The notes below the pieces were generated by a model. The model saw only the letters and a program-made list of their open reading frames with translations, was not told the origin of the DNA and ran no database searches. The position numbers were made by a program, and so were the translations under genes. Below are positions 9,535 to 48,333 of a stretch of 64,000 nt of DNA, in pieces. This stretch comes from Pseudogymnoascus verrucosus. Lineage: Eukaryota. Numbering within the stretch: the first letter of the stretch is position 1; the number at the start of each line of letters is the position of its first letter. Location: NCBI GenBank assembly GCA_001662655.1, contig KV460253.1. One strand, 5' to 3'.

Positions 9535-12500
9535 TTACCAAGCACATCGCCCTAAAAGACTGTTTGGCCACGCCCTGATGTAGTATTTCCTTCCTTCTTC
9601 CAACAACAAAATGGCCAATCCAAACGCACCGGGAAGGAAGAAATACTCCACTGGCACTTCCGCAGTACCCAGCACGCGCTGAAACTCGGGGACATATAAC
9701 CAGAAAAAAACCATCACAAGTGCAAAGCCCATCGCTGGGAACAGGAGCCAATTCTTGGTTTCCTTGTTGAATAGAGGCGGATGCTGAAAGATGCTGAGCC
9801 TGCGTGTGCGTACTCCGAGGAGGTTAAACCACTGCATTACAACGAGATTGACGAAGTAGATCGAAGATGCGACGGCGAGTTTCGAGGCGACGAAATCAGC
9901 ATCGAGGTTGTCAGGGAGTGCGCCATACTGGAACCAGAAAACAGAGAAGGGGATCCCTTGGCGCTCGAGATACCAGAAAGCCATGGCAAAGGAGGCGATC
10001 GATTCGAGGACTCCGATGAATGCATAGGTTTGCACCATGAGCTGCCAGTTGACGAGACGGTCCAACTTGGGCTTGCGCGGGCGGCGGAGGAGGACGTCGG
10101 CCTCTGGTGCCTCGTACGCAAGAACAATCGCTGCAGCGCAGTCTGTGAAGCAGCAGATGATAATCATCAAGAACGAAGACAAGATTTGCGGGAGACCGAA
10201 GATGACATTGCCGAATACGGGCCAGAACTCGGAAAAGGATCCCGCGGGGAGTAGGTAGGCGATGGTCTTCTTGAGGTTATCAAAAACGACGCGGCCGTAC
10301 TGTACTGCATGAACGATAGCCGAAAAGGATTCTAGCAATACCATGTCCGCAGCCTCGATTGCTATGTCTGATCCGCTGCCGAGTGCGATTCCGATGTCGG
10401 CTGCTTTGAGGGAAGGGGCGTCGTTGACTCCGTCACCAGTCATCCCAACGATTTCGTCACGGCTTTGGAATTCCCGCACAATGCGGAGTTTCTGCTCGGG
10501 AGTTGTGCGGGCGAACACGATCTCGTCATATCGACAGAGTTGGTCCCATTGGCATTCGTTGAGAGTGATCAGCTCTGGACCGCTGACGACGATTGAAGTT
10601 ACAGGTTGGGGAGTCAGGTCAGATGATTTGTTGATAGATGAGGGTGCGGATACTTCATCGCGAGTGAGTGCGGTGACAGTCTTTACTGCACCTGGCGGGT
10701 TGGTAATGACGCCGCATTCGGCAGCAATAGCCTGTGCAGTCAACGCAAAGTCTCCAGTGACCTGAATAAAGCGTTAGAACCTTGCTCACTAGAGTCTTTG
10801 TATAGAACGCTTACCATAAATATGCGAATACCAGCTCGTCTGAGAATGCTCACTACCGAGGGTATCTCGTCGCGAGGAGGATCGACTATGCCAACAATCC
10901 CAACAAAGGTCAAGCCAGTCCTAGAATGCTCCATTATCTCGTCTTCGAACTCAGCATCAGCAGGAGTTGATTGAATTTGCTCATGACCTAGAGTTTTGCG
11001 AGCGAGTAAGATTACGCGTTTGCCCTGAGAAGACCAGCGGTCCTTCATGCAAGATATGCTAAAGCGGGTGGCTTCATTGAGGGGTTTGCTAACACCATCA
11101 CGGTCCACGAACATAGAGCATCTACTGATGAGGACATCTGGAGCTCCTTTAATCGTCAGGAGGCTTATAAGGTCAGCATTTGCTGTATTCAAGACACCGA
11201 TAAACTTACGTGGCATTCTGTCGGAATTCATTCGCCTCGGTGAGTGATAGAGCTAGATCCAGACCGACCTTATCAGCTAGAGTAAATGTCCTAATCATAT
11301 ACTTGTTCTTGCTATTGAAAGCGAGCTCGAAAGTTTTAACCCATGATTCTCGGACCTCTGTAACCGGCCCAAGGGACTCTGAGAAGCGAAGTATAGCCTG
11401 ATCGGTGGCATCCCCATGTATTTTCCGGTCGTGGAGCGGCAAGTGGTACGTAGCTGCATCGAAGTTTCCGGAATTGCACAACCCAGCAACGGTCCGCAAT
11501 TGAGAGACGGAGTTTTGGCCGTCGTCTGCATTTTTCTGACGGATCATTTCATCACGGCTACCTTCGACACTCATGTCAAAGGCACCAATGGCAGCTTTGG
11601 TGACGTACATTTTGTTCTACAGAGTCTGTTAGTTTCATTATGATATCGCGTTAAATACAGGACTCACCTTTGTCAAAGTACCAGTCTTATCTGAACATAT
11701 TACAGAAACTGAGCCAAGGGTTTCCACAGTCTTGAGGGACTTGCATAAAATCTTGTTTTTTCGCATGATGTTGGCAGTGATTGTCAGACTGGCAGTGACT
11801 GCGATTGGTAACCCTTCGGGGATGAAGGCAATGGCGACACTGACGCAGCTTACGATGAGCGCAGGCACTGAGATCCAACCAGGGTGGTTTTTACGAAGAT
11901 ATGCAGCCCTGATACAGTTAGTCGAGGATTACCATCGTGGATTTGCGAAAACTAACCAGACAATAATGAAAAGAACTATCATTGTCACCATGATGGAGAT
12001 AATGACAAAGACAAAGTTGAGGACTTCCTTCTCTAAAGGTGTCATACCGGTCGAAGGTTCGTTGGTTAGCTTTGCAATCCGACCAAAGACTGTCTCGTCG
12101 CCTGTGCTAACAACTACACCGAGACCACTTCCTGCTATGCAATGAGTGCCTTGTAGTCCAATGCATCGGGTTTCGAGGAAATTTGGATCGGTGCTGTCAA
12201 CCGTTCCGGGAAGAGGTGCAGATTCACCTGTATGTACGTGTCAGCTGCTGTATCTTTTTGTACCGCTATTAGACGTACCAGTCAGAATAGACCTATCAAA
12301 TCTCGCATCCGAAGAAATTTCGATGAGTCGCACATCAGCGGGAAGTTTGTTGCCGGCCTTGATATACAGAATGTCTCCAGGAACTATATCGCTAGCGAGT
12401 ACTGTAGCTTGGACGCCGTCCCGCAATATGATGCAGTTATCAGGAAGCATAGTAGTGATTGATGCCATGACCCGCGACGAAGACCAATCTTGCCACGCGT

Positions 12501-13172
12501 TAAATACAGCCTGGATAACGAAGACAGCGAGAAGGACAATAGCGAGTGCTAGGTTAGCAATAGCCGGTGCCGGTTCTCCGAGCGGCTTCCAAGATACGAA
12601 GACGAGAATACCACCAACGAGGAGGATGCTTCCAAATCCCTTGAAAAAGTATCCAAAAATTTGCTTTGTGTAATGGGTTGGTGGGTGAGAGGGAACATTT
12701 TTGCCGTACTTGGATATGTTCTTCTTTGCCTGTTCTGCGGAAAGACCTCGAGTCTTTGAGGTCGAAAGACGCTCGAAGATTTCTTCGGGAGAGACTATAT
12801 GCCAGTCGAGGTTCTCAAGCTCTACAATGTTGTTAGTTTCTGGGTAGTCACTCGTATCTCGCTGTAATACCTTTTGTGGCAGAGTTTTTATGCTTCTTGG
12901 CCTTTAAGAGCTCTTGATCAATACTCTCGTCGATTTGAAAAGACCTGTACAGCGTAAGCAATCGGCCAGTAATAGTATATTACCGCAACCTACACAGCTC
13001 GGTATTGAATAGGGAGTGCGTGTGAAGGATCAATTGATCCCCGGCGGCTGTGGCTGCTGTGAATCGAGAATTGCGAGTTTGAGCGATAGAGCGCGCGAGG
13101 CCTCGAGGCCGATTCCACATCATCTGCGGTCCATTGAATGCGAGGCCCTTCTTTTTCTGGAGGATTCGCCAT
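9535..13172 (-). CDS. ACU1: ACU-type K+/Na+ uptake P-type ATPase (fungal Na,K/H,K-ATPase-like), multi-exon
   Basis: SILTG|ES split by an intron, [57 protein letters not shown]; canonical introns reconcile the ORF pieces; start MANPPEKEG at 13172. ACU subfamily call is from recalled motifs. Confidence 0.82.
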
Positions 13173-14249
13173 GTTGACTTGCGCTTTGAACTCGAAGTTT
13201 CGGCGCACGATATGGGATGAATGGAAAAGGGGGATGGGTGGCTCGTTAGAAACAAATATGATGGGAGTACAGGGCGTCTTGTACTCGCTGATGAAAGGCA
13301 GGTACCGGCCGGTTTTCTAAAGAATCTACTCACTTTGAATGAAAATGAAAATGAAAATGGAATTATACCTTTTTGCCTCCTATCATCCATCGATATGCGA
13401 GATTTAGAATTGACCTACCATATACTAGTGCTTTTCAGTGATAGTCACCTTTTGAGCTGAAGTCTTTGGCGCCTCATCTTCCGACTTCTTTTTGATAATG
13501 GGGCACAGTTCCTGACATGAGGGATTTTTAGCATGTGCGGCATTTCAGGTCTTCTATTGTTTTCTGGTTTTTGGCATTGTTATCTCAGCGGTGGCATGAT
13601 GGGTGCGGAGATAGCTGACGTAGAGGGCACAACCAGCGATAAAAGCCTCATAGAAGAATGAAGCGACTAAGAATTTGCACAGCCCCTGGGAATCTTAGCT
13701 AGCGAAGTTTAGAGGGGTAGCTGGACATCAAGTCTTACTCATGACATCCTTTCGATAAGAAAATAGGTAACGGTGTGATAATTTTTTAACAAATCGCTGA
13801 ATGTCCTCTTTGTCTGTTGTTCTCCGAAAGTGGCAAATCGAATGTCCGGTGACTCTTTCTGTGTTACGTGTAGGCGAAGTCGGAGATATTCCATATAGTT
13901 CCGTCACAAAATCGCCTAGAACACTGCGAGGCTCTCGAATCGCTCATGAATGGCTAGTGGGCTTTAATTGTGCTTACGACCAAGCAATAACCCCAATAGT
14001 GCTCGCAAGAATCACATCAGCACAACGTACGATAATTACTCCTGCCATCTGAAGGTCTGCGGAGGCGCCGTGCCTAGAGTATTAATTATGCGAGCTTTAG
14101 AATAGCAAAAGAGGACAATGAAGTTTATTAATTCCCATAAGCTGTAAGTTTTATATTATAGGAGGTAGCTACTAACAATTTTAACATGATCGATCCTCGT
14201 ATCACTGTGCTCAATAGAGATCAATCCATTCTCAGGGGCCAGTGCAATG

Positions 14250-17200
14250 TCAAAGGGTATGCTCGGTCCGAGGCCAACCTCCGATACTGCCAGCGACAAG
14301 CCCTGCCATAACTGCTACAGGTTTTAAGCTAGATTTTCTGTGCGATTTGTTTCGCCGATTATACGCATGAAAACGTCCGCCATGAATCCACGACAGAATT
14401 TCCAACTCTTCGCGAATTTCCAGGAGCACAGAATTCCAATCCTTCAGTTGGCTTTCATCAGATACTACTAGTGCAGAAGTGGTTACCTGCGGTTGCCATC
14501 TATATGGAATGATCTTCTGAAAAACGTCATCTGGAATGAAGCGAGTAATAACTGCCACTGGTATCGAGAGGAAACCGAGGACAATTGAGTATCCCCACTG
14601 AGCCCCGTTGAGACGAACCACTTGTAATGCTCTACCACCAATAAGGATGATGATGACTTGCCCAACAATCATGCTGAGGTTTATGCCTATAAATAGCCAA
14701 TTCCGTGTGATACCCTCGAATATGTTGAGTTTATTATCAATCCGACGATTGCTGTTATGCATCAGTTTAAGTTAGACAGTGGAGAGGCAGTTAGCTTACT
14801 TATACTGGTTGAAAATCTGCATCCATACAAAAGTGTTAAAAACCATAGTCCTTAGCTGCGCTCTTTCACCCTCCGAGTGGTATGAAAAGATGGCATCACC
14901 ACCAAAATGTATTATCAGTAATACAACGAGCTTGTAGATAGACTGGGCAAGAATCATCTTCCACATTGTCACTGTGATCAACGGCGACGATTTTGGATCC
15001 GGTTTCCGATCTAGAATGCTCTCCGCTGGAGGGTCAGTGGCTAATGCAAGAGCACCCATGGTGTCCATGATCAAGTTTACCCATAGCAGCTGAACAGCTG
15101 TTAAGACAGAAGTTTCAGTGTCGCTGGCAACAGCAGAAACAAATGTTAGCACTACTGCGGCAATATTGACGGTGATTTGGAACTAATGAGATTTAGTCAG
15201 AGAGTAACAATTGCAACGGACACAGAATACAGCTCACTTGTAGAAATTTCCGAACGGCATCATTAACAGCTCGGCCCCACATGACTGCCTTGACGATAGA
15301 GGAGAAGTTATCATCCATAAGGACGATATCAGAGGCTTCTTTAGCAACTTCCGTGCCGGTGAGGCCCATGGAAAATCCGACATCAGCCGTCGTTAGGGCT
15401 GGTGCGTCATTTGTGCCATCCCCAGTAACTGCGACAACCTCACCTAGCTCTTGAAGGGCCTTGACTAAGATCTTCTTGTCTTCGGGACTGGATCGTGCGA
15501 GTACTTGCAGACGAGGAATGATGCGGTTCATCTCAACGACGCCCAACTTCCTAAAATCTTGACCGTCCATCACCAAATCATCGTCTGTGAGAATACCACA
15601 TTCCCTGGCAATCGCTTTAGCGGTCAGTAGATTATCACCTGTGACCATCCGGACTGTGATGCCAGCTGCCTGACATCTTGCAACAGAAGCTTTGACACCC
15701 TCCCGCAAGGGATCTCGAATTCCTACAATGGCAAGTAGCGTCATGTCCTTGAACAAATCGTCAAAGCCCGTTTTGAGGAATTCGTTCATGGTTCCAGCCG
15801 CGTGGCATGGCAAACTCTGGAGATCGCGGTACAATAGGGCAATAGTTCGCAGGGACCTGTTGGCAAAATTCTTGATATTGCGATTCAAATGAATCATATG
15901 TTCTGACGTAATAGCTGTGCTAGAAGCGTCCGAAGCCACATTTTGAAGGATTTGGGCACACCTTCCGAGCATCACCTCTGGAGCTCCTTTGGCATAAATC
16001 CGGAAGCCATGCTCTGTCTGAACTATAGTAGCCATATACTTTCGAGCAGAATCAAATGAGACCAGGTAAACAGTACGGCTGTTTGACCGCTCTAGACTGA
16101 CGGGGCCCATGCCTAGAGAAGTATGCGCGAAGTCAAGGAGGGCTGATTCGGTTTTGGAGCCAGTAAAGGCCAGACGTCCTTTATCTTGGACCTCGAACGC
16201 CGTAGAATTGATCGCGATGGAATCTTTTAAAAGGCACTTGACAGGTTTGGAAATTGCGTGAACAGAAGCAGTCAAGCTTGGCTCAAGCTGTCTCTCCGCT
16301 AATGGTGTATTGTCCTCGCCACCGGCAGAGCTGTTCTGACCCATGCAAATTGCAACTACAGTCATAGTATTCTGAGTCAGTGTACCAGTCTTGTCAGAAC
16401 AGATGGTTGTCGCATTGCCCATCGTCTCGCACGCCTTCAGATATCGGACCAGGTTGTTATCTTTCAACATCTTCCTGGTAGCAAAAGCTAGAGCTAGAGT
16501 GACCGCAAGCGGTAAGCCTTCCGGCACGGCGACAACGATGATTGTTATGGTGACGATGAGGATTTGCATGAACTCTTGAGCTTTCTCAGAGGCATTTTGA
16601 GTACTCCCGGGCAATTGAACAAAAAACTTAATCAGCAAGGTAACAAATAATAGCAATGCCGAACCAATTCCCAGTTTTGCGATCTGGTTAGCCAGGCGAT
16701 ATAGTTTATACTGAAGAGGAGTCACTTGAGGGCCTTCGTGAAGGGATATCAGAGTCTTTCCGTAGCTCGAATGGATTCCAACGGCGGTCACTAGGAACGT
16801 ACCGACCCCTTCGCTGACCTTGCTCCCCGATATAATAAAAGGATCCATCTTGTTGAGATCCTCCCCAGCTAGTATAGACTGAAATACATCTGCAGCAGCG
16901 TGTTTTGTGATCAGGCTAGATTCGCCCGTGGCCGAAGACTCGTCGCATCTCACATTGTACCCATCGATAAATATACCATCCACTGGTATCACGTCGCCTG
17001 GTTCAAGGTGCATCACATCTCCAACAAGTACATCAAAAACCGAAATCTCCTGTATCTTTCCAGATCGAATGAGCTTCACGGTGCGGTCTTGCTTCTTCTT
17101 GTTTAGTTTACCAAATTGACGTTCTTTCTGCCAATCGTTCAGAGCACCAACTACCACCACAATCAAAATAGCCACCGTGATCGCCACCCCCTCAATCCAC

Positions 17201-17919
17201 TCAACAGCTGCCTCGCCCTCTTTGTGTGGCTGACCAAACGTTTGGTACAGTCCGACAGCTAGCGATATGACAGCTGCGATAGTCAATAAAATTAGAACCC
17301 TGTCATTGTATGCCATCCATGCAAGCTGCAGGATGTTTTTGGGTTTCTTTTCTGGTACCCTATTATCCCCAAAGGTTCTCCTCCTATCTGAAAACGACTG
17401 GTCTGGTCCTTGAGCCTTAATTAGCGGCCTGGGAGATTCGTATTCCGTGCGATGTGTCATAGGAGGATGTTTCGATGGTGGTCTGGTAATTTTTGCTTCC
17501 TCTAACGAGATTGTCCCATATAGAAAGGCTTCGTCAGGACTCAAGCCGCCTAGTCTGTCCGTCCTCAGTCCTCTCTCTAAACCATCTATCCCTCCAACAG
17601 CGTAGAAAGCTGATAAGCTCTTCGGGTCTATCAACTTCGACATTTGACCTGGTACGAAAGCAAATTTGTTGTCCGCTACTTGGAAATCCTCAACTCTGTC
17701 CGAGAGGGGTTCAAGGGCCGTTGTGTCATATATGATTCGGCTGTGAACGGGTGCGCGCTCTAAGGGAGATGGGTGTTGCCCACTTGTGGTCGCCCTGTCC
17801 TCAACTTCGCTCATCATTGTTTTTACTGAAGTAGGCTCGTCCGCAAAATGGGCCAAAGTGGAAGGTAAGATGTTGTCACAGACGCTCCCATCTCCATGAT
17901 CTGAAGATTCGTGAGCCAT
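14250..17919 (-). CDS. PMC1: PMCA/PMC1-type Ca2+-transporting P-type ATPase (type IIB), 3 exons
   Basis: [68 protein letters not shown]-terminal AVMAGLVAGSIGGW. Confidence 0.92.
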
Positions 17920-19562
17920 ATTGACTTGCAGGTGGGGGTTTATGAGCCACAGGCTAGGTTGAGGGTAGCGCTGCTATTCATTGACAGCAGTTCGATGCCG
18001 ACGTTCTGGCTGTAAATGACAAGATATTAACTTTGGGTGTAAAATCTTAATAATTAGTGTATTGTCGTAAATGCATCATAGTTGAGGTAATAACATACTG
18101 AATTCAAAGTTGACTAAAGTATAAGTTATATATTTGAGAAGTAGTGTTCTCCAAGCTCTAAGCGTCTGCTTTGAAAGAAATCACTACTGCCGAACGAGGT
18201 GTCCGTTAGAGGCGGACTTCATAATTATCTGGAGCCTAGCCATCTCTGGTCACCAACGCCAAAGAGGGTGGTGAGTTTGATGGCGCTCATACAAGCCAAC
18301 CAACCTGAAGCCAGAGAGGGAAACCACCTCTGGAATTTAGTGGGCGCCCTTTCTAGTACTGGCCCCATCACGTCCGGTCCAGAGTGCAGCCGTAGATAAG
18401 CAATATGGCAGTGCAAATAGGACTACATCGATCGTCCTTACATTGGTTGTCCACTCTTCAGGCAAACGCCATGACAACCACACTCCAGCCTGTACTCTAT
18501 CTTTACCAATTATTGCAGGTTGGCTCATCTCAAATTCCCTTGAGCTTCTTCTGACATTTTGTCCGCAATGCTGCGGTCAGCCAAGAGGACAAAGATATGG
18601 TAGAGTGTGGCTTAGACGATGGACTAGAGCAAGTGGCAAAGGCTAAGAGTGACGGGACGGGACCGCAAGCTTGAGGAAATCATGTCGTCATCTGACATTA
18701 AACGGGAAACATCACACATCCAACAAAGTCCAGAGCCATTATGCCAAATTAGGTATATCTATGCACAAGATACTAGTACTACTACTGTCTTCAGGGTCCT
18801 CGTTACGATGCGAATCATTACGGTTTCTGGCGCGTCTCCAACGCGTGCACAGGCCCATCCAAGGGGTTACGAAGGTTACGACCCAACCCTCGAGAGTGAG
18901 CCAGAAAATCAGGTCTACGACGTAAGTTAAGTGACCCTTATGACAATAGACTCAAAGGAATTCCTTGATTATGTTGTTTTTGTCAGATATTTCGCAATCC
19001 TCTGGGTTGAGTCGCGCGTCTGGCAAATTCAGAAAGCGAATATCTCGAGCCCCATGGGGCTTGATACAAGAAGTGCGACGTTCCGAAGGTGCCTAACGCA
19101 CGACAATTGATGATAGACATCACTCAAGCGCCTCTCAACTGGAAGAATTAGACATCTAGTGTGCCTCCTTACGGCGATGCACTCTAAGCTGTTCTAACAG
19201 AGTTACGGGCACACTAATATAACATCAGCCCACCACGCCCCTCTGTATCAAAGTTAATAAATAAATATATTGTATAAAAAGTCCACGATTTAACACCATC
19301 TAAGTAGAATGTAATGATTGTAACCCGACTGGTGGAAGTTCCAATTGCTAAATTACTCCCTTAGGTAGCCATACAACCTGGCCGATAATCCACTGGAAGA
19401 TCCAAGGTTCTTGAACTATTCCGAGTCACCCAATACGATGCTGAAGAGCAAGTGTAAAATGGTAATGTATGTGTGTGAGGGGAGTGTGTGAGGTTGAGTT
19501 GGGTGAAGTGGAGTTCGTGGTCGTTCGTATATATCGTGAGTTAAAGTGTCTAGTGTGAAGAC

Positions 19563-20009
19563 TTATGATGTGGATTGCCTGCGGTGGTTGCGGAATTGAT
19601 CGAATGAGCTGGCGTAGCCGCGGAGTTCGCGACGGGCTTTGTCAGAGAGTTGGACTTGCTCGGAGGAGGTCGACGAGGAGCTCTGCATCGAGAAGAGAGA
19701 AGATTGGGACGACGACGGGGTCAAGACTGGCCTGGTGTAGATGGGCTGAGTTTGAGGTCTTGGGTGAGACGACGAGGTCGACGGCCTCTTGGTGACGTCG
19801 TAGGCTGAAGGGACGTAGAAGTTGTTGCTTGGTTTTGAAGGCCACGAGATCGAAGCCTGATGGGAGGCAGGCGAGCTGGCCTCTGAGCCTGTGTTGGCTC
19901 CCCCGTACTCAGCCAGACGACAGTCCTCTCCGCAGTAGGCATTGCCACTAGTCTGCCTATCACAGGCAAGGCAGAAGGTGGGCGACCAATCCATATCTTC
20001 TTGAGACAT
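19563..20009 (-). CDS. ECL1: Ecl1-family (extender of chronological lifespan) zinc-binding protein
   Basis: FCLACDRQ...AYCGEDCRLAE Cys4 motif, LTPSSSQSSL box, C-terminal ELRGYASSFDQ; TATA-like element near 20124. Confidence 0.82.
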   Translation of the reverse strand: MSQEDMDWSPTFCLACDRQTSGNAYCGEDCRLAEYGGANTGSEASSPASHQASISWPSKPSNNFYVPSAYDVTKRPSTSSSHPRPQTQPIYTRPVLTPSSSQSSLFSMQSSSSTSSEQVQLSDKARRELRGYASSFDQFRNHRRQSTS

Positions 20010-22211
20010 TGTACGAGGTTATGATTGGAAAGTAGCCGAGGAGGTCAGGCTGGAGGTGAGAGAAGGGAAGGTCAGGCTGAGCTTGGGATATCGAAAGCAA
20101 TACGGAGTGGAATGGCACTAGGGTATATAACAAACGATTGTTTTGCCTCAGCCTTCAGAGATCGGATTCGAGTAGTCTAAAATCCGCATTGAAGATTGCT
20201 TGGTTGCTTGGGCGAAAATCCCTCAAAAGCTATTATTGTGGCCTGGATGGAAGAATTTCTGTTAGCGGCAGTGCCGTCGCCGAAACTCTCGCCCCTGCTC
20301 ATTCCGACTTCCCCTCCAGCTTGCTTTATCAATTGGGGTCTACAGACGCTGGTTTGTGTCAGTTTTTTGATATTTACTCATAATGACGAAGATCTGGGCT
20401 TGCGCGATATTTTGGTCCCCGTGTGGATGCCGTGTGGATGCCGCGTGGATGAGCGATTTCCCCAACATGAGACTTGCAACTTCCCTGTTCAATGCTTTCC
20501 TACTTGCAAGACGTTGGTGTCCTGAAGAGCCACTTATCGATAAAGCTCGCAGATTCTTATTCACCCATACGACTTCTACCACGGCCATTTTGCTGCTTTC
20601 AACAGCTCCACACACACCGTGCTTGACAAATGCAATGCACTGAAGAGTATTTCGGCGTCAACAGTGCCTGATACAGTGCAATGGAAAGCCGAAGCCTCAG
20701 CGAGATGCGGTCGTATGAGGTAGAGGAGATATCGCTAGGAGATGAAGAGGCAATGGATGCGGACGGGTGCGTAGGTGAAAATTGCCAGCTACTGGGCCAG
20801 CATTTCACACCTAATCCACACACTGGATTGCCGGTTTACATGACGATACATCGGTGAGTGCGACCACCCTGAGAAATGGAGTAGATTGGTGACTACCATG
20901 AGGACTATAAATCCCAGCTCACAGCTTTGTTTAGTTAATGTGTTAACCCCGTCCAGGCTTTTAACACGAGCCTGACCGATACAACGTGACGATGTGCAAA
21001 GCGCCTGCTCCTTATCCCTCATATTGAAAACATTGAAACACATTTAACTCCCTTCATGAAGACACCGAGAAATCGAAGGCAAATATCCCCTAAACGATAT
21101 TTTAGAGAGCGCAGAGGTTGCCACATTCGAAGCTCAACGTGCCAAAGCTTCTGGCGCATCGGCAGGCTGCAAGCATGGTTGGTTGCGTTTTGGTTATCAG
21201 AATGGCGCTCCCCCAAGACTGCTACCGTGCCGTTTATATGATTCTTTCCCAATACCCCAACAACAACAAGCTGAGCTGATAGGCTGCTTACGTAACCCTC
21301 TGTCCCCACGTCTGCTCCAGACATCGTTGCTGAAATTACTCTATACAATTACTTTGAGTTGAGGCATACACTATCTACGAAGGTAAATGTATTCTTCATT
21401 TTTGTTTTTTATTTTTTTACTTTCGTGTCAGGCCCATGCCGTTCAGACGGGCCCGCCACTTCCTAACCGCCGACCGTTGCTAGACTGTCCTCTTTACCTA
21501 AGCTATTCTTGCCAAGAAGCCCTTTGGCCAAGTTCTTACTATCAGTTTCCTGATTTCGTCCATAACGAGAATCCCTAGAGCTAAGGGAAGAGGAATGAAC
21601 CAGAACTCGATTTGAACCCTTGCTGTCCCGAATATCCTCTAGATCCCTAGCACCTCTGTTACGAAAATTGTAATGGCTAAGCTCATACCCATGCCTACGA
21701 GCAACTAACGATTTCTTCTCTTCTGCTAGATAGGATCTGCCTAAAGGATTGAGAGCCTCTTGTTGCGGATGCTAAGGATATTACCCCATTGCAGGAAGGC
21801 GAGAGTGACGAAGTATACGCTCTGACTGGATGGTGCTCTGCGACCTCGAGTTTGATGTTGTCGTGATGAGATGGCGCCAAAATGATATTGCGACCCACCA
21901 AAAAGGATGACATAATCCTTGCATCATCCATTGCAAAGCATTATTTCAAACGATATACATAGTACTGTATCCGCTACCGTACTGTATGCATCCTCTAAAA
22001 GACTATATGAGCCAATCCTAAGAAGCGGCGGCCAAGGAGGAGAGAGCGACGTTTTGTCCATCTGGTGGTGACATAGATTGACCTCACGGTGGGGCTCAGA
22101 TTGTAGGTAAAGGACAAAGATTGCCAAAGTAGGTCGTGTGACGAGTCTTTGCATACACAGGCAGGAATGCTTCATGTACAGTACTTATGCCAGTCGCGAG
22201 ATGGGGGACAC

Positions 22212-24393
22212 TCAACTGCCACTTGCCATTGACTGTGGTTGCGACACAGGTTCTAGACGCACCGTCAACAAGTCGACCTCCACCGTCTTGCCCAAGATCG
22301 CTTCAGGGGGGTCCGTCTCAAAAACCGCCTGTATGTCTCCATGAGGAGAAAATCCAGAGAAAGTCCAGGGGAAAAGCTTGCTGCGTTTTGACGGGCCACG
22401 AGGTTGGCCGTTGGGTGCCCGCCAAAGTTGATGCCGCTCGTAGAAGCCAATGAGCAAAAGGATAGGAGAGTTATGGATGCGAATCATTGCAACATTTACA
22501 CTGTGGAACCATCGCGGAGAGAGGAGGAGCTTCAATGGAAGGAGGATCAGCAGTGCTACAACGTTAAAAGGCGGGCGATAGGCGAATATAGAATCGCTTT
22601 TCACGCCCTCAAAGGTGAGCACTGCGCGCCGGAAATGGATTTCGGCGGTCGCGTTTGCAACAATCTTGGAGAATGTATTAGTGAGCATCGAAACAAGAAT
22701 GGTCAGAAATAGCGTATTGCCTAGAAACGCGAACGCGATCATGAGCGACGGCCCGAGGACAAGGTGGAAGTCCACGGAGCGCTCGATTCCGGTCCCATCA
22801 AGCCCAAACCAGATCCAAAGCATCCATTTAGAGATGGTGGCCGGGTCGGGTCCGTCGCGGCTGCCATCATGGTTGCTGACGTCGAGGAGCCACTTCATGG
22901 AGAGGAAGAAGCCGGCAAAACACCAGATTGCTAGCAGTGTTAGGACGGAGAAATCTCTCATCATGGCTCGGAGCGAGATAAAAAGCATGTTGTCTGGCAT
23001 TAAGTTGAACGCAAGACGGGGTAGGAGGACTGGAGCCGCTATAGCTAGTATGTTGAGTGCGGTTTCTCCTAGATAGGTCTGGCCGCTCGACAATGCATAC
23101 ATCCGTGTCGTGAAATAAGTACCATAGATGACGAAGAACGTAATATCCAAGAATGACCAGAGGTTCTGCGTATGAACCTTCCATCCGTGCTCTATGATTG
23201 CAGCAAACTCCTCTAGGATCCAACCAGTAGCATAAGCACAAAAAATGACTTCATAGAAGGTAATTTTAAGCCCTTCGCGGCTGACCATAGTGAGGGCGTA
23301 AAGGGCTAAAAGAATTGCAAACTGGCAGATTTCAATCATGCCGCGAAGCCGTGGGACGATCAGCCGGTACTGATTGAGAAGAGGTGCTTTTCGAGGATTG
23401 TAGAGAGAAATTGGGTTGTGCTTGTAATGATCCGGTAAGATATCGACAAATGATAGCGGCGTATAAATAACCTGTCCTCGATAGATTGCATCTACCACCT
23501 TCTGGCAGGCGGAAGAGCTGAGGAAGGTTTTACTTTCAGAGATTATGGCCACCTCTAAGGCCGGTAGCTTCCTTTCATAGCCCCCTCTCCTCTGAACTGG
23601 CCATTGCAAGGCGCTGGGATTCTCCCGCAGGACCTCAATAGGGGCGTTTTGAAAAGGCTCAAACCCAGCTACGAGGATATTAGCTAGTAACAACAGACCC
23701 TCACGACCTGGGTGGTCATCGTCGAAACGTCGGAGAACTCGGGTTGCGACTTGAGTTCATATAGTCAGCATGTAGGAGGGAATGAAGCAAAGCTCTAGAA
23801 ATCTGCGTACCGAGCTCACAGAGAGTAGCGCGAGTGATGTTGACTGTCTGTAGGTGGCCTTGATATGACTGTTCGCGAAGAAATTGCATCCGGTTGACGA
23901 GGAGACAGTACACTTAAGCTCAAAGTTAATTCCACTCTTGGTCAATGAGGATAGAAGCAGCGTAGTGCAGAGGTGGGTGTCTCAATCCACAGGACTAGAA
24001 GCATCTGAGATCCAGAAACAGGATGTGTACCTACCAACAGACACGTCGCTGGGGTTGTAGAGTCGATCCACGAGGGCCCTCACGATGAGTATATTCATCC
24101 GTGGCTCCTTGAGCTGCTCCAGGGAATACGGATCATCTGGCCAATTTTTTTAGATTTCCGCCTCTTTCCTGTCAAAGATGCCGCAAGAACACTGACCTAT
24201 ACTAGAAATGATAAGCTTGCGTATCCTACAAGCAGTCAGCCAAAAACAATCCGTGAAGTGGTTATGATTGCCCTTCGAGGACACACCGGTGGATCGTTAT
24301 ATACACTGGCAGGTCAGCATGCGGATCTGGAGTGAAATGCTCGCCCGGAGCGCATTCCAGAAGCGCGTCACTATCGTCGAACGCAGACTCCAT
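22212..24393 (-). CDS. YVC1-like TRP-family non-selective cation channel, multi-exon (3' end may extend further)
   Basis: Spliced N-terminus MESAFDD...DPHADLPVYITIHR|IRKLIISSI|DDPYSLEQLKEPRMN; multiple TM segments with pore WIWFGLDGTGI and FLGNTLFLTILVSML, TFEGVKSD. Confidence 0.8.
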
Positions 24394-25774
24394 TCCCACG
24401 AAGGCAAGTTTGTAAACGCCGAGTTATACTCGAACACACGGCGGAGAGAGACAGGCGAGGGCCTCATGGCGCGGAGGATGGTGTAAAATGAACTTCTTGT
24501 GCTACCAAGAATTGAGCTTCTTGAACTGTTATGGAATAAGTTTGAATAAGTTTAAAGCTAGCTATTTTTGGCTGACAACTCTACAGCGAGCTGCAGTGAG
24601 AGATAGAGGGTATTCTACTGCGAGATTATTGTTGCACAAATCTCTCACTGCAGCTCGCGTGGAGATATGCTAGCGTAGATGGCGGCCCACTCTGTGGAGA
24701 GCCTAACCCAGAACGTGTGCTCGTGTGGTCCATGCTGAAACTCTGGAATCTATATGGGGGATTTTAGGTGAACAGACATCATGACTAAGCATTCCAAGAC
24801 ATCTTGACCTGCCACCCCACATAATCATGACTGTACCTGTTCCTAGTTTGTATAGTCTATTCTGACCTCAGTTCGAATATTGACGAAGTAAGTATTCCGA
24901 AGCGTACTTTCCAACGACGGTAAATCTTTATTTCGGTTGTTTGAGGAGCTGTCGCACTCTTACTCGCGATGAGTATTCTGGAGGAATCCTACCACTCTAT
25001 GGAAATTTGCGTTTTCTAGGTAATCCGCTATAGGAAAGCCGATTAGCGCGTTCTGAGGCATTTTGGCCTGCACCAAACAGAATTTAAGTAGTCTCACCCA
25101 CACCACCCCCACATTCGTTAAACATTAGACGATGCTTTTAATCCCCTGTCGCGAGCATAATACCAAAGTATGACATCCTTGTAGCGCCTCAGTAGCTTTG
25201 TAGCAATATGCACGCTGCAAATGCAGTTACGGGTGGGTGCACAGCCTCCGACATGTGGCAAGCTAACTCAAACCATGCTTTCTCCATGCAGCATGGCTTG
25301 AATGATACCGCGTAGCCTGACAGTGAGGCAATTTGGCCTCCTCGAATCTGGTCTTGACGATAAGGTGGCTAAGGAGCCGGTCCTTTGTCATAGGATTCTA
25401 TTATGTCAATTGGGATGTCTCAGATATGGAGATTAGATATCGCCCTTGTTTTTGTCCTCCTTTCCCAGTTCTACAATCTCAGAACTCGTGAGAGCACTCA
25501 CAAGTTCTGAGATTGCTCAAATAGAAGCAAAGATAATATGACCGTATATCCCTTGCTTTAGAATGACATGCAGGTACTCAAATGCTGTGCAAACCAAATC
25601 GCGATAAACCTCTGCATTCTTAATACTTAATTCCAACTGTCCACGTCCCCATTGATACCAAGATTTGCGAGAGACATAAAGCTGGCCGTTTGCAAATCAC
25701 AATTGCATAATATTGCGCATTTGTCCTCAGAACTCATCACCTTTTGTAACCGCTCTCAGAAGTAGCAGCCTGGC

Positions 25775-28357
25775 ATGGTTGACATCAGCACTACTCCGGG
25801 CAGTCAATCTGGGGAGGACGTCAACCTCGCACAGAAATCTGGAGATGTGGCCGAACATAAAGATGCATCTCTACCAGAAAAGGCCGATGGCTATTCCCTT
25901 GACGAGGAAGCTGCGCGAATCGCTGATGAAGATTTGAATCGAAAGAAGAAGCAGGTATGAGACTACTTGAAGGCGTCGCAAGCTTCTTGTATACTAATCA
26001 CGGTGCTCAGACATATAAAGGACGAATGCTCATATGGCTTGCACTCCAATCAACTGGAGTTATATACGGCGATATTGGAACTAGGTATGTATTTATTCCC
26101 CCGAAGACTCATGTGCTTCTTGAGCCCTGATTTTGTCTGCAGTCCTCTGTATGTTTACTCGTCTACCTTCTCGACTCAACCAGCCTACGATGACCTTGTT
26201 GGAGCCCTGTCTATCATCATCTGGACATTGACTCTTATGGTTACAATAAAGTATATGTTTATAGTTTTGTCAGCCGATGATGACGGAGAGGGAGGGACCT
26301 TTGCGCTATACAGTCTCTTAGCACGCTACGCCCACATCGCCCAGCGAGACCCAAACACTCAAGGTTCTCTGAAACTGGAACGTTATAATACAGGGGATAT
26401 GAAGGTTGCAAATAAGGGCATTCGGACTATGATTGAGAACTCCCAGGTCGCCAGGGTTTTCCTTAAGATTCTTGGGGTCTTGGGAGTTGCTATGGTCATG
26501 TCGTAAGTTCACACTTCTAAGGAATTTCCGGCAGGGTGAGAAGCTGATGGTCTTCAAGCGATGGTGTCCTCACTCCCGCTCAGTCTATCCTGGGAGCCAT
26601 TCAAGGCCTCAGGGTCGCACAACCAAACATTTCATCTGCTACTATCGTTGGGGTATCATGTGCTATCATCGTCGTACTTTTTTCTGTGCAACCGTTTGGA
26701 ACCTCTAAAATTGCATCCTCATTTGCACCAATCGTCATGATATGGTTGCTCTTTAATGCTTGCTGCGGTATATACAACCTAGCGAAGTTCGACCACTCAG
26801 TTCTCAAAGCCTTCAGCCCATTCTTTGCCGGTTCATTCTTGGTTCGTAATGGGACAGATGGATGGCGGACGCTGAGCGGCTTATTACTTGCCTTTACTGG
26901 AGTTGAAGCCCTCTTCGCCGATCTAGGCGCCTTTACCAAACGGGCGATCCAGCTTTCCTGGCTGTGCCTTGCATTTCCATGTCTGCTGTTGGCCTGTATG
27001 TCTTTAATTTCTATTCTTCGATCCCTGTCCTTGGATCAATTATGACTACTAACTACGATTTTTCCGCAGATATCGGTCAAGCGGCATACATCGCGCAGGA
27101 TGCTACGGAAACGGCATTCACCAACCCATTCTTCTATACAGTCATTCCAGGAACCTTCTACTTCAGTCTCGTGATAGCAGTTATGGCTACAATCGTCGCC
27201 TCGCAGGCGATGATTACAGGCGCCTTCCAGCTCCTCTCCCAGATTATGAAGATGTCATACTTCCCTCATATCAAGACTGTGCATACATCCAAGCTATTCC
27301 ATGGTCAAATTTATATGCCATTGGCGAACTGGTTACTAATGATTGGCTGTGTCATTGTCACTGCTGCGTACAGTAATGTAAGTCTGAAGAGCGAGCCACG
27401 CCGGCCACCTCACGTATTAAGACTGTGCTGATCCATGTAAAGACCACAAGAATTGGAAACGCCTATGGTGTATGCGTTATCTTTGTGACGTTTATCACAA
27501 CCTGTCTGGTCTCCCTCGTTGCAATACTTGTGTGGCGCTTCAACATCCTCATTGTCATTGCCTTCTTCCTCGTCTTCGGCGCCCTAGATGGCGCGTATCT
27601 CTCGGCAGCACTCATGAAAGTCCCTAACGGGGCCTGGTTTACCATCATGCTTGCATCTATTCTTTCATTCGTATTCGTCCTATGGCGTTTTGGGAAAGAG
27701 CAGCAATGGAGTGCAGAAAGGGAAGATCGTTTCCAGCCTTCGCATCTGCTATCTTCGACTGACAACGGCGATGTCAAACTCACCGCAGCTTACGGTGGTA
27801 GTATTGTCTCGAAAACCCCAGGTATAGGCATCTTCTTCGATAAAACTGGCGATATGGTCCCCATCGTATTCGCACAATTTGTGAGAAAATTCAGTGCCCG
27901 GCCAGAGATAATTATCTTCTTTCATATGCGCCCTCTATCCATGCCCTCAATCCCGGAATCCGAAAGGTTCGTCATCCAGCGTACTTTGATTCCGGGCTGC
28001 TATCGCATCACTGTACGACATGGCTATATGGATTCAATCGTCTCTCCTGATCTTGGGCAGCTTCTTGTCGGGCAACTAACTTCATTCATAACCCGCGGCA
28101 ACTCGTCGAATACATCACTTACAGAGTATCCTCCGGCTGTTCAGAGGGAACTCGATGCTCTAAGTAGCGCTTCACAGTCACAACTGGTGTATGTGATGGG
28201 CAAGGAAGAGATGAAGATTAAACATGGGACAAATATTTTCAGAAGGGTGCTTTTGGCGATGTTCTTGTGGTTGAGGGAGAATAGTAGGACAAAGATGGCG
28301 GATGTAAATATCCCGACTGATAGCTTAGTTGAAATGGGCTTTGTGAAGGAAATTTAG
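25775..28357 (+). CDS. HAK1: HAK/KUP/KT high-affinity K+ transporter, multi-exon
   Basis: GVIYGDIGTS|PLYVY split by an intron, DDGEGGTFALYSL, DGVLTPAQS, LLAFTGVEALFADLG, GQIYMP, C-terminal VEMGFVKEI. Confidence 0.93.
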
Positions 28358-28701
28358 ATGCCGTGGGGTTTTCGTGTAGGTATATACCAGCGGAGATCGT
28401 ACGTTAGGTTTGAATTCAATCTGTCCTGAGGTCATGTAATATTGTCTAGGCGCGTGATTCCAGCTGATCAAATCTCCCGATCCAGCATTTTGTTCATTTT
28501 TGTTTTGGTGACCATAGTGTGTGATTACGTAGGGTCACAGGGAGAGTAGAAACCACCAGGAGCAGATATTCGAATCGAACCAATGTATAACCGCTCTCCC
28601 TTTTCGTTTCGTTTTATATGGTAGGTCGATGCAGATCTCGATCCCTTGGACTCCCCTTCTGATCATGATTGGATTATAACAATTCAGGCTCGGCTTACGC
28701 C

Positions 28702-29527
28702 TTAACGAAGAAGTCGAGCTGGTCTAGGAAGCGCTAGGACAAAGCTTAGAGATGAAAAGGCCTCTTGTAACGGTTTTCTACTGTAAACGTTTGAGTTAGC
28801 CAGACTGTCACTGTTCCTGGCACTCTTGAGTACTCTTGAATACTTTGCCAACGGGAGATGGCTTACCATAATGGGCATGTTCCACTCTTATTTAAGAGCC
28901 ACGGATCGATACAGCGTTGGTGATAGATGTGATTGCAAGGCAGTATGCGAACGTTCTCGTTCTCAGCGAAACTCTCTATGCAAATAGAGCAGGTGGCAGG
29001 ATCAATGGACGACCCAGATTGACCTCCGGTCTGCAACGCGCTGCCTTTTGATTTGCACTCGTTCGTGCTACCCATTACTGCTGCTTCAGTCTGTATAGTC
29101 CGCTTCTTCTCTCCTTTTATCGCTGGTTGGAGCTGTCTTCGCGGCGAATAGGTATTCCAGGCAGACTCATTCGCATGGCCATGTCTTTGCTGTTTCGGTA
29201 GCAGCCCCGTGTTATATCTCATGACTGGTAATGAGTCTAGGAGGGACGTTCGAATTTCTTTTTGAATGCTCTCTTCTTCGCGCCTTCGATGGTTTGATAC
29301 AGAAGCAGGGGCGGTGACAATAGGTCGTACTCGATTCATGTACCTAACAACGACTATAATAATTACGACCATTGCTCCGACAATGGCTATCGAGATACCC
29401 ACTTTGCTCTTGTTTTCAGTGGTGCTACCTTGCGTATCGGTTCCTTGCGTATTGGTTGCTAGAATTAAGTCAAAACCACATGTTTGACTAGACTATGAGA
29501 TTGGCAAGACTTACTCGCCACTGGCAT
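28702..29527 (-). CDS. Single-pass membrane RING-H2 E3 ubiquitin ligase (ATL/RNF-like), 3 exons
   Basis: Hydrophobic ISIAIVGAMVVIIIVVV segment; CSICIESF...VRILPCNHIYHQRCIDPWL...TCPL|C completed across a GTAAG...CTAAC...CAG intron; 13-nt first exon at 29527. Confidence 0.75.
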
Positions 29528-31051
29528 ATTGTGCAGCGTCAGGTCCACCCTTACTTAGAGCTCACAATGGGCTCGGACTGCAATGCTTCGCATTCTGTCA
29601 TAGGGGCGTGTAGCGCTCATAGATGTGTAAAATAGCATTGATCTACCTTCTACGGCAACATAGACACTACCAACGTATTATATTCGAGCATATCAAGGCT
29701 TGCTGGGCGTATTCACGTTCCTCGCATATTTTGAAGTCACATCAGTCAAAAACATGTGAGGATTCATCACTCGGTGACGAGATCAGATTGGAGTAGGCCA
29801 AAATGCCTCAAGTCGCTCATTACTCTCAGGAGCGAGCGACCTAGAATTGGAAATTATGCCATGTGCAAGTAGCCATGAACACGAGCACTCGGGTCGCGCA
29901 TCCATAACTCCCGTTCATTTCATTTACTTCCCCACAAAGCTTTGGCATTCTCCTCACACAGTTGGGTGGTAGCAGCGTTCACTATGGAGCAGTTTGATGC
30001 ACTTCTTTACGGTAAGCCGTGATACATGTCGCGCCAACCCCCTAATTCAGGGATGTGCAGGTCAGGCTAAAGAAGCATCCCGTTCATACATCGTTTATGT
30101 GAACCCACAGCTCAGGCCCAACCAACAAACGTCTTCCATGGTTAGAACTGAGGTATTTAATCCTCCTCCAGTCTGGATGCTGGAACTCTATTTTGTCAAT
30201 TGGTATAAGGTAACAATTATATAAGACCAAGATGTGGATGTCACCAGCTCCTTTGCTGTGGGGGTTACTGCGACTGACTAGCAATGGGTAACGGTATATG
30301 TGTACATGGCAGATGATGCTGTGTCAATCCTTCCTCCTTGCAATGGCCATGATAGCCTTTTAAAAGGAAGTTCTTTGCCATCAGAACGAAAATATTGAGT
30401 ATACTTGGAGAGAAGCTGGCATTATTCCAGAATGGCATTATTCCATTTAGTCATTTAGTCGTCAGAAAGTGCCCCGTACGGCTGATGGACCGTCAACCCC
30501 ATCATCCTTAAACCGAGGTGACTGATAACTACCCGTTTACAGCAGCACCTCGCTCATCCCGCATAGAGAGAAATTAGCGTGGGCGAAAATACCTCGCCAT
30601 TAAAAGTTCCCAAGCTTATAGTTCAGGCACACCAAACGAACCAATCAGAGCCGGTTTTTCAAGTTTTATCAGGGGCAAGTTTCTAGGTACGGAAGCGAGA
30701 CCAATCTTTTTCAGCCACTTTCCAAGTCGTGGGGGAATGTCTAGATCCCTCAACCATAGCGTTCTCGAAGCTTGGTAAAGCACATGGGAGCGTACACCAC
30801 GATGACGAAATGGCGAAGACGTAACAGAAATCGAAAATCCTCCGGCCATTAGTATTTGTGGATGGTAATTTCGAGAGGAAGAAAAGAGAGCAAAACACTA
30901 AGAATACCTTATTAAGGTGTTCTCCCTATGGTGGTGCATAATAAAAAGCCTCGGCACAATTACATCCCTTTTTGATAGACAAAGACAGCACGCCAACTCT
31001 CATCTATCATTTATTTCCTAGAATCAGGGCGATTCTACCTCTTCACCCATA

Positions 31052-31990
31052 ATGGCTGGCCCGGATTACTATGCCCCAAAGGACGCCGATGCGGATCAAG
31101 ATCTAGAGAGCGATGAGAAGCAGGCATGCATTAGATTCCACGATCGTTCTGATGATGTAGCAACGCAAACTAGCGCCGGCCATCGAAAGCGTAGGATGTC
31201 TCGAGACAGCATCCGCCGACGAAGCATGTCAGCCGCCAATACTGGCATCCCTTTGGAATTCCAAACACTATCCATTGGCCTCTCGGAATCGAAACAAATT
31301 TCGCATGACGATGACAAAAAGGAAAAGCTCAAATCCGAGGAACTTGATTACTTTGCGGGTCTTAATTTCCACTCCCTCGCACCGGACCAAGTCTTATAGA
31401 CCTTGAATACCTCGGAAAAGCATGGCTTGGACGCTACAACAGCAGCAGCGAGTCTTGAACGCGACGGCACGAACACGTTACCAAAAGTCCGCGATCAGTA
31501 CTGGCGCAAAATATTTTGGTATATCTTCGGCGGGTTCTGTTTAGTGCTGTGGTTTGGTGTTATTGTCTTCTTCCTCTGCTGGCAGCCCTTGAGCTCCCCT
31601 CCATCGATTCCAAATTTGGCAATGGCAATTGTAGTCATTATTGTCATTCTTCTTCAAGCATCCTTCTCGGCCTTCCAAAACTGGTCTACTAGGCGCGTTA
31701 TGAACTCGATTTTAGACCTGCTCTCTGCTAAAGCTATAGTGGTCTGCAACGGTCAGCCTAAAAAGATGCTAGTAATAGAACTTGTAGTTAGCGACATTAT
31801 GTAGATATTAATTAGAAATAAGGTGCCTGCGGATTTACAACTTCTTAGCACGTTAGGAGATGTTTGCTTTAATCAGTCTATCTTAATAGGAACTATTATT
31901 GCTTTTATTCTAGAGGGTCTGCCTATAGGAGTGGCTTTAACTCTTATAATAGTTGTAAATTAAATAAAGGCTACTAATATCCTTCTTAAG
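31052..31990 (+). pseudogene. Truncated, internally deleted, RIP-damaged second ACU-type P-type ATPase
   Basis: YIFGGFCLVLWFG...NLAMAIVVIIVILLQASFSAFQNWST, NKVPAD, AFILEGLP (=AFIPEGLP); in-frame stops at 31397, 31802 and near 31961; stops before the DKTGT motif. Confidence 0.88.
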
Positions 31991-32317
31991 GGGAGTGTTA
32001 ATGCCTTTAAGGGAAAGTTTAAAGAAACGTTACTAGGTCTTTAGGGTAGTGGCTAGGGCTAGCTAGTATAGGATGTTAAGACTAATCTCCTTAAAATTAT
32101 AACTAGTAAAGATTAAGACATTATGCCTAAGGGTAAGAAGCTGCTACTTAGAGTAGATATATAGGAGCATATATACTATCTCTAGTACTTTAATAACAAG
32201 AAAGAATATGTTACTAGCATCTAGAACGTAATTAATTAGACTGTAGTAGAGAAGCAGCTTAGGAGCAACACTAACACTATCTTTAGTGTTGTTAGCACTC
32301 TTATAGTAAATTTATAG
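31991..32317 (+). pseudogene. RIP-damaged Fe/Mn superoxide dismutase C-terminal domain
   Basis: Translates LLGL*GSG*G*LV...SKD*D...LLRVDI*EHIYYL*YFNNKKEYVTSI*NVIN*; reverting TAG/TAA to TGG/CAG/CAA gives the QGSGWGW and DxWEHxYYLQY signatures of Fe/Mn SOD. Confidence 0.88.
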
Positions 32318-48142: not shown

Positions 48143-48333
48143 CCAATCAGGGTCCTCAGACGAACCAGCATTAACTCCTCCGCTTTATAAGCAACTGGTC
48201 GGTCGAATTCCATATGAACAAACGACTCAAGATGGAATCTCCGAACGCTTGATCTCCGATACATAATGAAAGCGTCGGAGAAACAATGTCATCCTGACGT
48301 TTACTCGGTAGCTTCGTTGATGCACCCGAGAAC

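Follow-up and report, generated by a model that had tools for sequence, protein, structure and literature searches.

We analyzed a stretch of 64,000 nucleotides from the fungus Pseudogymnoascus verrucosus (contig KV460253.1 of GenBank assembly GCA_001662655.1; this whole stretch is referred to as the window), in which seven neighbouring genes between 9.5 and 32 kb follow one another in the order ACU-type P-type ATPase, PMCA-type Ca2+-ATPase, Ecl1, YVC1/TRPY1-like channel, HAK, RING-H2 and a broken P-type ATPase. Our results suggest that this neighbourhood probably originated by lineage-specific, stepwise accretion around a conserved Ecl1-YVC1-HAK block, and that it is probably neither an ancient nor a mobile module. 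The block of Ecl1, the YVC1-like channel and HAK is genus-wide, with the RING-H2 gene adjoining it in the window; in the P. verrucosus group, the ACU gene and an accessory PMCA gene are placed directly beside the block; and another P-type ATPase, the third of the set and a member of a rare IIC-like subfamily, has decayed to two relics flanking YVC1, HAK and RING-H2. According to our reading, these relics would be the remains of a single gene that an inversion of ~10 kb broke apart and that lost its middle part, with mutation resembling repeat-induced point mutation (RIP) following at the right end. The features of the neighbourhood are as follows:

9535..13172, minus strand: ACU-type (Na,K/H,K-ATPase-like, type IIC-related) P-type ATPase (Pfam, spliced model)
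ACU exons, minus strand: 12994-13172, 12871-12944, 12279-12821, 11957-12227, 11668-11908, 11210-11616, 10815-11163, 9535-10761
14250..17919, minus strand: PMCA-type (IIB) Ca2+-ATPase, accessory Leotiomycete paralogue (exact spliced match, Pfam, PDB)
PMCA exons, minus strand: 15238-17919, 14800-15182, 14250-14751 (stop included), 1188 amino acids (aa)
19563..20009, minus strand: Ecl1-family protein, single exon, 148 aa (Pfam PF12855)
21501..21827, minus strand: C-terminal relic of a IIC-like P-type ATPase (tblastn, blastx, translation)
22212..24400 (upper bound approximate), minus strand: YVC1/TRPY1-like TRP channel, main exon 22212-23756 (Pfam, PDB, Atlas)
25775..28357, plus strand: HAK/KUP K+ transporter, 6 exons, 757 aa (exact spliced match, Pfam)
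HAK exons, plus strand: 25775-25954, 26011-26084, 26143-26502, 26559-26995, 27070-27377, 27443-28357 (stop included)
28863..29492 (without the 5' exon), minus strand: RING-H2 protein with one hydrophobic stretch (Pfam zf-RING_2)
31052..31993, plus strand: N-terminal relic of the same rare IIC-like P-type ATPase subfamily (Pfam, alignment)
31991..32255, plus strand: relic of a Fe/Mn superoxide dismutase (SOD) C-terminal domain with RIP-like mutations (Pfam PF02777)
31501..33500, no strand: AT-rich block with RIP-like dinucleotide bias, right boundary of the neighbourhood (composition)

A preliminary description of this DNA had proposed a run of seven neighbouring genes rich in cation transporters, and this run is real: it is borne out by the gene models and by a Pfam profile search, in which 17 of the 20 stop-to-stop open reading frame (ORF) pieces of the 9.5-32 kb interval were matched. 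The window consists of fungal DNA with short introns, and the closest database proteins of its genes come from Pseudogymnoascus (Leotiomycetes, Thelebolales). Four intact cation-transport genes of differing families lie side by side, together with the remains of a fifth. The intact genes are ordinary members of known families, and the novelty is their juxtaposition; the guanine-cytosine (GC) content of the cluster genes is like that of the remainder of the window. To our knowledge, linkage of fungal genes that share a physiological theme is rare except in secondary metabolism and in a few nutrient pathways, and cation transporters mostly lie dispersed in the genome. With five members of four cation-transport families, the seven neighbours are far above the expectation for independent placement, at a probability of about 1e-4 per genome; it should be noted that this is a rough estimate, with approximate family sizes and a category picked post hoc.

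The comparison of Pseudogymnoascus genomes is the main support for stepwise accretion. By locus tags, the Ecl1-(YVC1)-HAK block is common to the genus, P. destructans included, and it is in the P. verrucosus group alone that ACU and PMCA directly adjoin this block. The P. destructans genes for Ecl1 (VC83_00730) and HAK (VC83_00733) lie on one contig of 2.2 Mb, and that for ACU (VC83_06615) on another, of 888 kb. In isolate 03VT05, a fragmented assembly and weaker evidence, a 91 kb contig carries Ecl1 and HAK with accessions that differ by two, and ACU lies on a 46 kb contig. In the P. verrucosus/australis group, the genes for ACU, PMCA and Ecl1 follow directly on one another in at least three species. 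In Pseudogymnoascus sp. 24MN13, for example, they carry the consecutive tags VE04_07949, 07948 and 07947; the tags of PMCA and HAK differ by three both in P. verrucosus (VE01_08641 and VE01_08644) and in VKM F-103 (V499_03074 and V499_03077), and PMCA (KAL5346756) and Ecl1 (KAL5346755) have consecutive accessions in P. australis. In VKM F-4514, PMCA and HAK are four tags apart and an ACU gene is found on a separate 9.6 kb contig. The ACU genes of these species form one clade in the tree, following strain relationships, and they are located differently; thus, the same gene occupies different places in different species. An orthologue of PMCA was not found among the annotated proteins of P. destructans, 03VT05, 05NY08 and WSF 3629 (fully listed 90% clusters and matches of at least 66% identity), all of which have HAK. 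The description of the set as a co-inherited module thus holds insofar as neighbours are inherited together in part of one genus, and fails insofar as they are not one unit, being split in P. destructans.

Contigs of one run (X2) bridge the positions 17782-21828 and 21827-24585; the order PMCA, Ecl1, relic and YVC1 is thus shared by a close relative. The same run contains two versions of 13035-13684 (upstream of ACU, with 5 and 71 differences) and of 18019-18720 (upstream of PMCA), which represent either two mixed strains or a duplication of that part in the organism. Placed on the window, the contigs of four runs gave short pieces for the most part; several joints at conserved P-type ATPase motifs (e.g., from 11697 to 16445, with 26 letters on one side) were taken as cross-matches from other organisms and were set aside.

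The preliminary description had proposed co-location of these gene families in other genomes as a test. None was found beyond the genus in locus tags or in the flanks of PMCA relatives. Tags of ACU and HAK were adjacent in none of the ten species with tags in both lists (Scytalidium, Cudoniella, Chlorociboria, Hymenoscyphus, Monilinia, Venustampulla, Cercophora, Fusarium zealandicum, Vezdaea and Diaporthe), with tag differences of at least 481, and those of ACU and PMCA in none of four species. We also inspected PMCA relatives in 80 loci from metagenomes or fungi (flanks up to 10 kb; 30 loci of at least 20 kb, 16 of 10-20 kb and 34 shorter; most carry the core paralogue), and none of them had a true ACU, Ecl1, YVC1, HAK or the RING protein in its flanks. 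One locus (L001) carries the closest PMCA orthologue among the 80 (71% identity) and is the sole clear accessory type; its neighbours are sugar transporters, an alpha-galactosidase, a RING-H2 gene, a monooxygenase and an adenosine deaminase. This RING-H2 gene (8307-8708, minus strand) is a divergent neighbour of the PMCA orthologue; it was rejected as a case of conserved linkage, because it shares with the window gene only the RING domain (36% identity over 45 aa).

The PMCA-type gene corresponds to the second P-type ATPase domain match (14253-17973), and its spliced model has exactly the sequence of P. verrucosus VE01_08641. Its best PDB matches are PMCA2, ACA8 and PMCA1 (E 1e-145 to 1e-151), with other Ca2+-ATPases at 1e-84 or weaker, and both the sequence and the domain architecture of type IIB are present. 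The identity is 100, 98, 95 and 93% in some Pseudogymnoascus species; beyond these, it is 80% for a JGI record, 78% for Scytalidium, 74% for VKM F-4281 and another record, 72% for Cadophora DSE1049, 71% for a further record and 66% for Tricladium. Among the matches listed, those with at least 66% identity number 11 (some Pseudogymnoascus, Scytalidium, Cadophora, Tricladium and others), and all other matches are at most 62% identical, mostly core forms of ~1400 aa. In a tree of 32 rows (quick search, support by the Shimodaira-Hasegawa-like approximate likelihood-ratio test, SH-aLRT, only), the gene falls inside a nine-row, Leotiomycete-only clade with a stem of 0.62 and SH-aLRT of 100, separate from the core copies that Tricladium, Mollisia and Cudoniella carry. 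Since this clade stands apart from the Tricladium core copy, Tricladium has both the accessory and the core type. P. australis has two PMCA copies, located on different contigs. Judged from sequence comparison, the gene labelled PMC1 in the preliminary description is not the core PMC1/NCA-2 copy; it is a PMCA paralogue of the accessory type, confined to Leotiomycetes, and the label was imprecise. The comparison of gene trees with the core copy, proposed there as a further check, yielded at least one cluster member, PMCA, that is not the core vertical copy.

The P-type ATPase domains of the ACU-type gene were detected on the minus strand at 9538-12903. Introns were placed using junction peptides in comparison with VE04_07949; the resulting model has 8 exons, 7 introns of 46-53 nucleotides and 1096 aa with zero internal stops, and contains the core motifs DKTGT (residue 429), TGES (265), PEGL (386) and GDGxND (797). 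The protein is 98.8% identical to VE04_07949 of Pseudogymnoascus sp. 24MN13, 93.5% to P. destructans VC83_06615 and 88.9% to Venustampulla BP5553_09215. The closest solved structures are alpha subunits of Na,K- and H,K-ATPases (E 1e-56 to 1e-66), well before SERCA. The identity to a smut homologue is 47%, compared to 39% for the type represented by Penicillium ucsense PECH_001531 (P0425, 1110 aa) and 25% for PMCA. In the tree, the protein groups with ascomycete homologues and Thecaphora, and the chytrid/P0425 group is separate. It is a member of a large ascomycete family with the database labels "H/K ATPase alpha" and "Na,H/K antiporter P-type ATPase". As far as its sequence indicates, the gene fits the ACU family as reviewed in PMC6651076, the comparison with characterised ACU proteins being one by description only. 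One of the Venustampulla (Helotiales) copies (P0002, BP5553_09215; 89% identical) is sister to the clade of Pseudogymnoascus (Thelebolales) with SH-aLRT of 100, and the second Venustampulla copy groups with other Helotiales; this ACU lineage probably moved between orders.

The broken P-type ATPase at 31.05-31.99 kb is a real pseudogene. It spans the N-terminus to transmembrane segment 4 (Cation_ATPase_N at 31400-31801), with an in-frame TAG at 31397-31399, more stops from 31802 on and ~100 residues lost internally. It is 31-33% identical to ACU proteins, compared to 41-47% over about 290 aa for P0425 and P0415; the alignment to P0425 (41-45%) covers residues 5-294, with an extra piece at residues 405-441. 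The best PDB match is Na,K-ATPase. A search with the residues of 31400-31801 against 1.84 billion representatives produced 651 matches with E <=0.001, the best being 61-48% identical; the top full-length match was P0425, and the next named full-length matches came from a chytrid, Glomeromycota, a smut, Mucoromycota and others. A second relic, overlooked in the preliminary description, sits between Ecl1 and YVC1 and comprises the last ~110 residues (transmembrane segments 9-10) with three in-frame stops; it is 68% identical to residues 1002-1109 of P0425 and 39-41% to ACU proteins. P0425 is the best full-length match for both relics, is ~39% identical to the ACU type of the window and, in the tree, is placed outside the ACU clade together with the protein of the chytrid, and intact members of this subfamily are rare in Ascomycota. 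By these sequence comparisons, the relics are members of a rare IIC-like subfamily distinct from ACU; thus, what had been called a second ACU pseudogene is a pseudogene, and is not ACU.

The two relics are in opposite orientation, flank YVC1, HAK and RING-H2 and face away from each other. This orientation, together with the shared best match, suggests an inversion of ~10 kb, one breakpoint of which would lie within the gene. At the right end, the block 31501-33500 has GC of 0.34-0.40, TpA/ApT of 1.27-2.08 and (CpA+TpG)/(ApC+GpT) of 0.51-1.16, with 0.79 and 1.21, respectively, as the ratios in the whole window. The region 31.9-33.7 kb was considered as a candidate for the middle of the dead ATPase and was rejected, as the Pfam search with stops read through gave a SOD relic instead, located directly behind the ATPase piece (PF02777, E 6.6e-16, stops read as X). 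The ATPase piece and the SOD relic together suggest that the right edge is a patchwork of dead gene fragments. A second AT-rich block, whose RIP-like signature is strong, is located at 45501-47000 (GC 0.27-0.39, TpA/ApT up to 2.2, (CpA+TpG)/(ApC+GpT) down to 0.23), and no Pfam match was found there in any frame with stops read through.

As for the genes of the conserved block and the adjoining RING-H2 gene, the Ecl1 match to PF12855 at 19566-20018 (E 1.7e-14, 55.7 bits versus a cut-off of 28.3) is clear, an exact copy of the window sequence is on record, and the 90% cluster includes VC83_00730, VE04_07947 and P. australis KAL5346755. The channel has the domains YVC1_C (PF23317, E 1.9e-32) and LHD_TRPY1 (PF23190, at its cut-off) in 22215-23756, and its closest Atlas cluster is 100% YVC1_C with a score of 0.99; it matches yeast YVC1 (PDB 6WHG) with E 3.5e-16, aligned over yeast residues 165-546. 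Candidate pieces upstream of the main exon had no Pfam match. The spliced HAK model is identical, letter for letter, to VE01_08644 and V499_03077 (757 aa, annotated as a potassium uptake protein); the frame is complete, with the domains K_trans and K_trans_C at 25961-28354, and the identity is 89% to P. destructans VC83_00733 and at most 73% outside the genus. HAK and the YVC1-like gene are divergent, with a common spacer of 1.4 kb. Two near-perfect 19-nucleotide hairpins (100% and 95% complementary) are found in or near this spacer at 24586-24658 and 25474-25515, and contigs of run X2 fold back at the former. The RING-H2 protein has zf-RING_2 at residues 167-208 (E 3.7e-13; 28866-29492), and its hydrophobic run VGISIAIVGAMVVIIIVVV was read in the translation.

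The preliminary description interpreted the set as a module for low K+, salt or mineral stress in which K+ scavenging is coupled to Ca2+ signalling. As a rival explanation, this means a co-regulated cation-homeostasis module, in which such stress would turn on ACU and HAK, as two high-affinity K+ uptake systems, along with the Ca2+ pump and the Ca2+ release channel, with Ecl1 and RING-H2 as regulators and with linkage kept by selection, and we consider it unlikely. The strong functional enrichment among the neighbours speaks for it, as do the retention of the divergent YVC1/HAK pair in the genus, the contiguity of ACU, PMCA and Ecl1 in the P. verrucosus/australis group, the status of PMCA as an extra paralogue, which is expected of a specialised copy, and the presence of further metal-handling genes within 35 kb (a FRE-CTR pair and Bsd2); PMC12256816 also provides a fungal precedent for ion-homeostasis clusters. 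However, the set is not one inherited unit, ACU being unlinked and PMCA not found in P. destructans, and co-location outside the genus was seen neither in locus tags nor in the flanks of PMCA loci. Furthermore, one member is dead, so that the full set has not been under purifying selection. The promoter analyses point in the same direction, each being a weak test: the yeast calcineurin-dependent response element (CDRE) consensus GNGGCKCA has 16 matches in the window versus 15.0 expected, i.e., chance level, and among words found in at least four of the five cluster promoters there were zero eight-mers and three seven-mers, versus 0.1 and 6.5 in shuffles, so that no seven- or eight-mer is common to the five promoter regions beyond the shuffled expectation. 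The word CACWGCC (a Crz1-type word) has 30 matches in the window versus 15.3 expected, spread out and with a tandem run at 60.1-60.2 kb; in the ~8 kb of cluster spacers there are 4 matches versus about 2 expected, which is not significant in this likewise weak test. That K+ scavenging would be coupled to Ca2+ signalling had been deduced from family names, and the weak test of promoter words gave no signal for it.

Another explanation is that the region, or its ACU-PMCA part, was acquired horizontally or is mobile cargo, of the Starship type or another large insertion; we regard this as very improbable. It would account for the variable presence and placement of ACU and PMCA among congeners, and the Venustampulla ACU, sister to the Pseudogymnoascus clade, is a hint of gene movement; the RIP-like blocks at 31.5-33.5 and 45.5-47 kb indicate past repeated DNA, run X2 has two diverged versions of the ACU upstream region, and Starships with ion-homeostasis cargo exist, according to PMC12256816. 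Conversely, no DUF3435 ("Captain"), transposase or reverse transcriptase was detected in the 67 ORF pieces of at least 110 aa outside the cluster (11 of which had any Pfam match) or in 12 read-through frames of the AT-rich blocks, and a repeat search found no terminal inverted or direct repeats around ACU-PMCA or the whole set; the search for a Captain and for boundaries was limited to the 64-kb window, and a larger Starship element could extend beyond it. Housekeeping genes, RPAP1 and one with an HPC2/ubinuclein domain (Pfam), form the left flank directly, the GC content of the genes equals that of the rest of the window, and the trees and identity ranks of ACU, PMCA and HAK otherwise follow Leotiomycete relationships. 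Lineage-specific accretion is, in our view, the probable explanation, and several points weigh against it. The enrichment, improbable under independent placement, leaves room for selection on linkage, and the divergent YVC1/HAK pair stays linked in the genus. A divergent layout with a shared spacer often accompanies co-regulation. A yeast-type CDRE word, GTGGCTCA, is located 24 nucleotides upstream of the PMCA start. Conservation of the Ecl1-YVC1-HAK block is, for YVC1, read from tag spacing rather than from named orthologues, and in P. destructans and VKM F-4514 an additional gene model, relative to P. verrucosus, lies between Ecl1 and HAK. Synteny outside the genus was judged through locus tags and flanks of PMCA relatives only. 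The inversion is deduced solely from orientation and the shared best match; the repeat search revealed no breakpoint repeats, and the missing ~560 residues (P0425 442-1001) were not found by tblastn at E up to 5.

The intact genes would be expected to act as their families do: ACU in ATP-driven import of K+ or Na+, HAK in import of K+ with H+, PMCA in clearing cytosolic Ca2+ and the YVC1-like channel in release of vacuolar Ca2+, with Ecl1 and RING-H2 as ordinary neighbours. A more speculative and rather doubtful extension would be an "ion island" of the P. verrucosus group, in which ACU and a specialised extra Ca2+ pump relocated beside an older divergent YVC1-HAK pair, with K+ scavenging and Ca2+ signalling switched on jointly in mineral-poor cold soil or cave habitats. 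Such an island would, with the same doubt, be a non-Starship counterpart of salt-tolerance clusters, caught while assembling, with the dead third ATPase as a by-product.

Other genes of the window were also annotated. To the right of the cluster, a ferric/cupric reductase (34045-36136, minus strand; Ferric_reduct, FAD_binding_8 and NAD_binding_6) and a Ctr copper transporter (37002-37547, plus strand) form a divergent pair, and reductase-transporter pairs are known in other fungi. A gene of the Bsd2/NEDD4-adaptor family, which is linked to metal-transporter turnover, is located at 62182-62721 (plus strand; PF10176, E 1.4e-44) and is another ion-related gene in the 64 kb. The P. destructans CTR genes VC83_00191 and VC83_04814, given in PMC11509074, have tags far from VC83_0073x. 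A trichothecene 3-O-acetyltransferase-like gene (37911-39308, minus strand), a major facilitator superfamily transporter (41520-43316, minus strand), a Zn2Cys6 factor (48298-50685, plus strand) and an FAD-monooxygenase piece (58630-58962, plus strand) may constitute a small secondary-metabolism neighbourhood.

If the genes are co-regulated, they would represent a second kind of ion-homeostasis cluster, independent of that of Starships, and the variable ACU/PMCA part would be natural material for studying cluster formation. If this is mere accretion, the value is in corrected annotation, i.e., the accessory PMCA clade, the probable transfer of ACU between orders and the rare IIC-like relics. 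It should be noted that P. destructans, a bat pathogen, is without the ACU-PMCA part at this locus, which may be of interest for comparisons with saprotrophic relatives.

Compared to known systems, the ACU-type gene resembles the ACU family (PMC6651076), whose characterised members come from Ustilago and Millerozyma, in having the P-type core motifs and alpha subunits of Na,K/H,K-ATPases as closest structures. For the relics, PAT-type P-ATPases (Blastocladiella PAT1, in the same review) are a lead only, set beside them by description: the relics belong to a IIC-like lineage apart from ACU that groups with a chytrid protein. The PMCA of the window shares type IIB architecture with PMC1, NCA-2 and NCA-3; however, it belongs to a fast-evolving clade restricted to a few Leotiomycetes. 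The channel has the YVC1_C and linker-helical domains of YVC1/TRPY1 (6WHG), whereas its similarity is low and the model is without N-terminal exons. In the preliminary description, the neighbourhood as a whole was not recognised as a described cluster, and this is partly borne out: no cluster of ACU, HAK, PMCA and YVC1 was described in the literature searched, and the tags VC83_00730-00733, VC83_06615 and VE01_08641 were not found in it (subscription journals and supplements were outside its scope), whereas fungal ion-homeostasis clusters as such are known. The closest described kind is the salt-tolerance cargo cluster of Starships in Aspergillus and Penicillium, which, according to PMC12256816, includes ENA2, SAT4/HAL4 and a TRK2-like gene, with NHA1, TRK1 and pacC. 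In both cases, alkali-cation genes of several families are adjacent in a filamentous ascomycete, and composition and order vary between relatives. In contrast, there is no gene family in common, the window set consisting of ACU, HAK, PMCA, YVC1, Ecl1 and RING-H2; the window set lies beside housekeeping genes, with no Captain or element ends found in 64 kb, and it belongs to a psychrotolerant genus of soil and caves, whereas the Starship clusters belong to food moulds.

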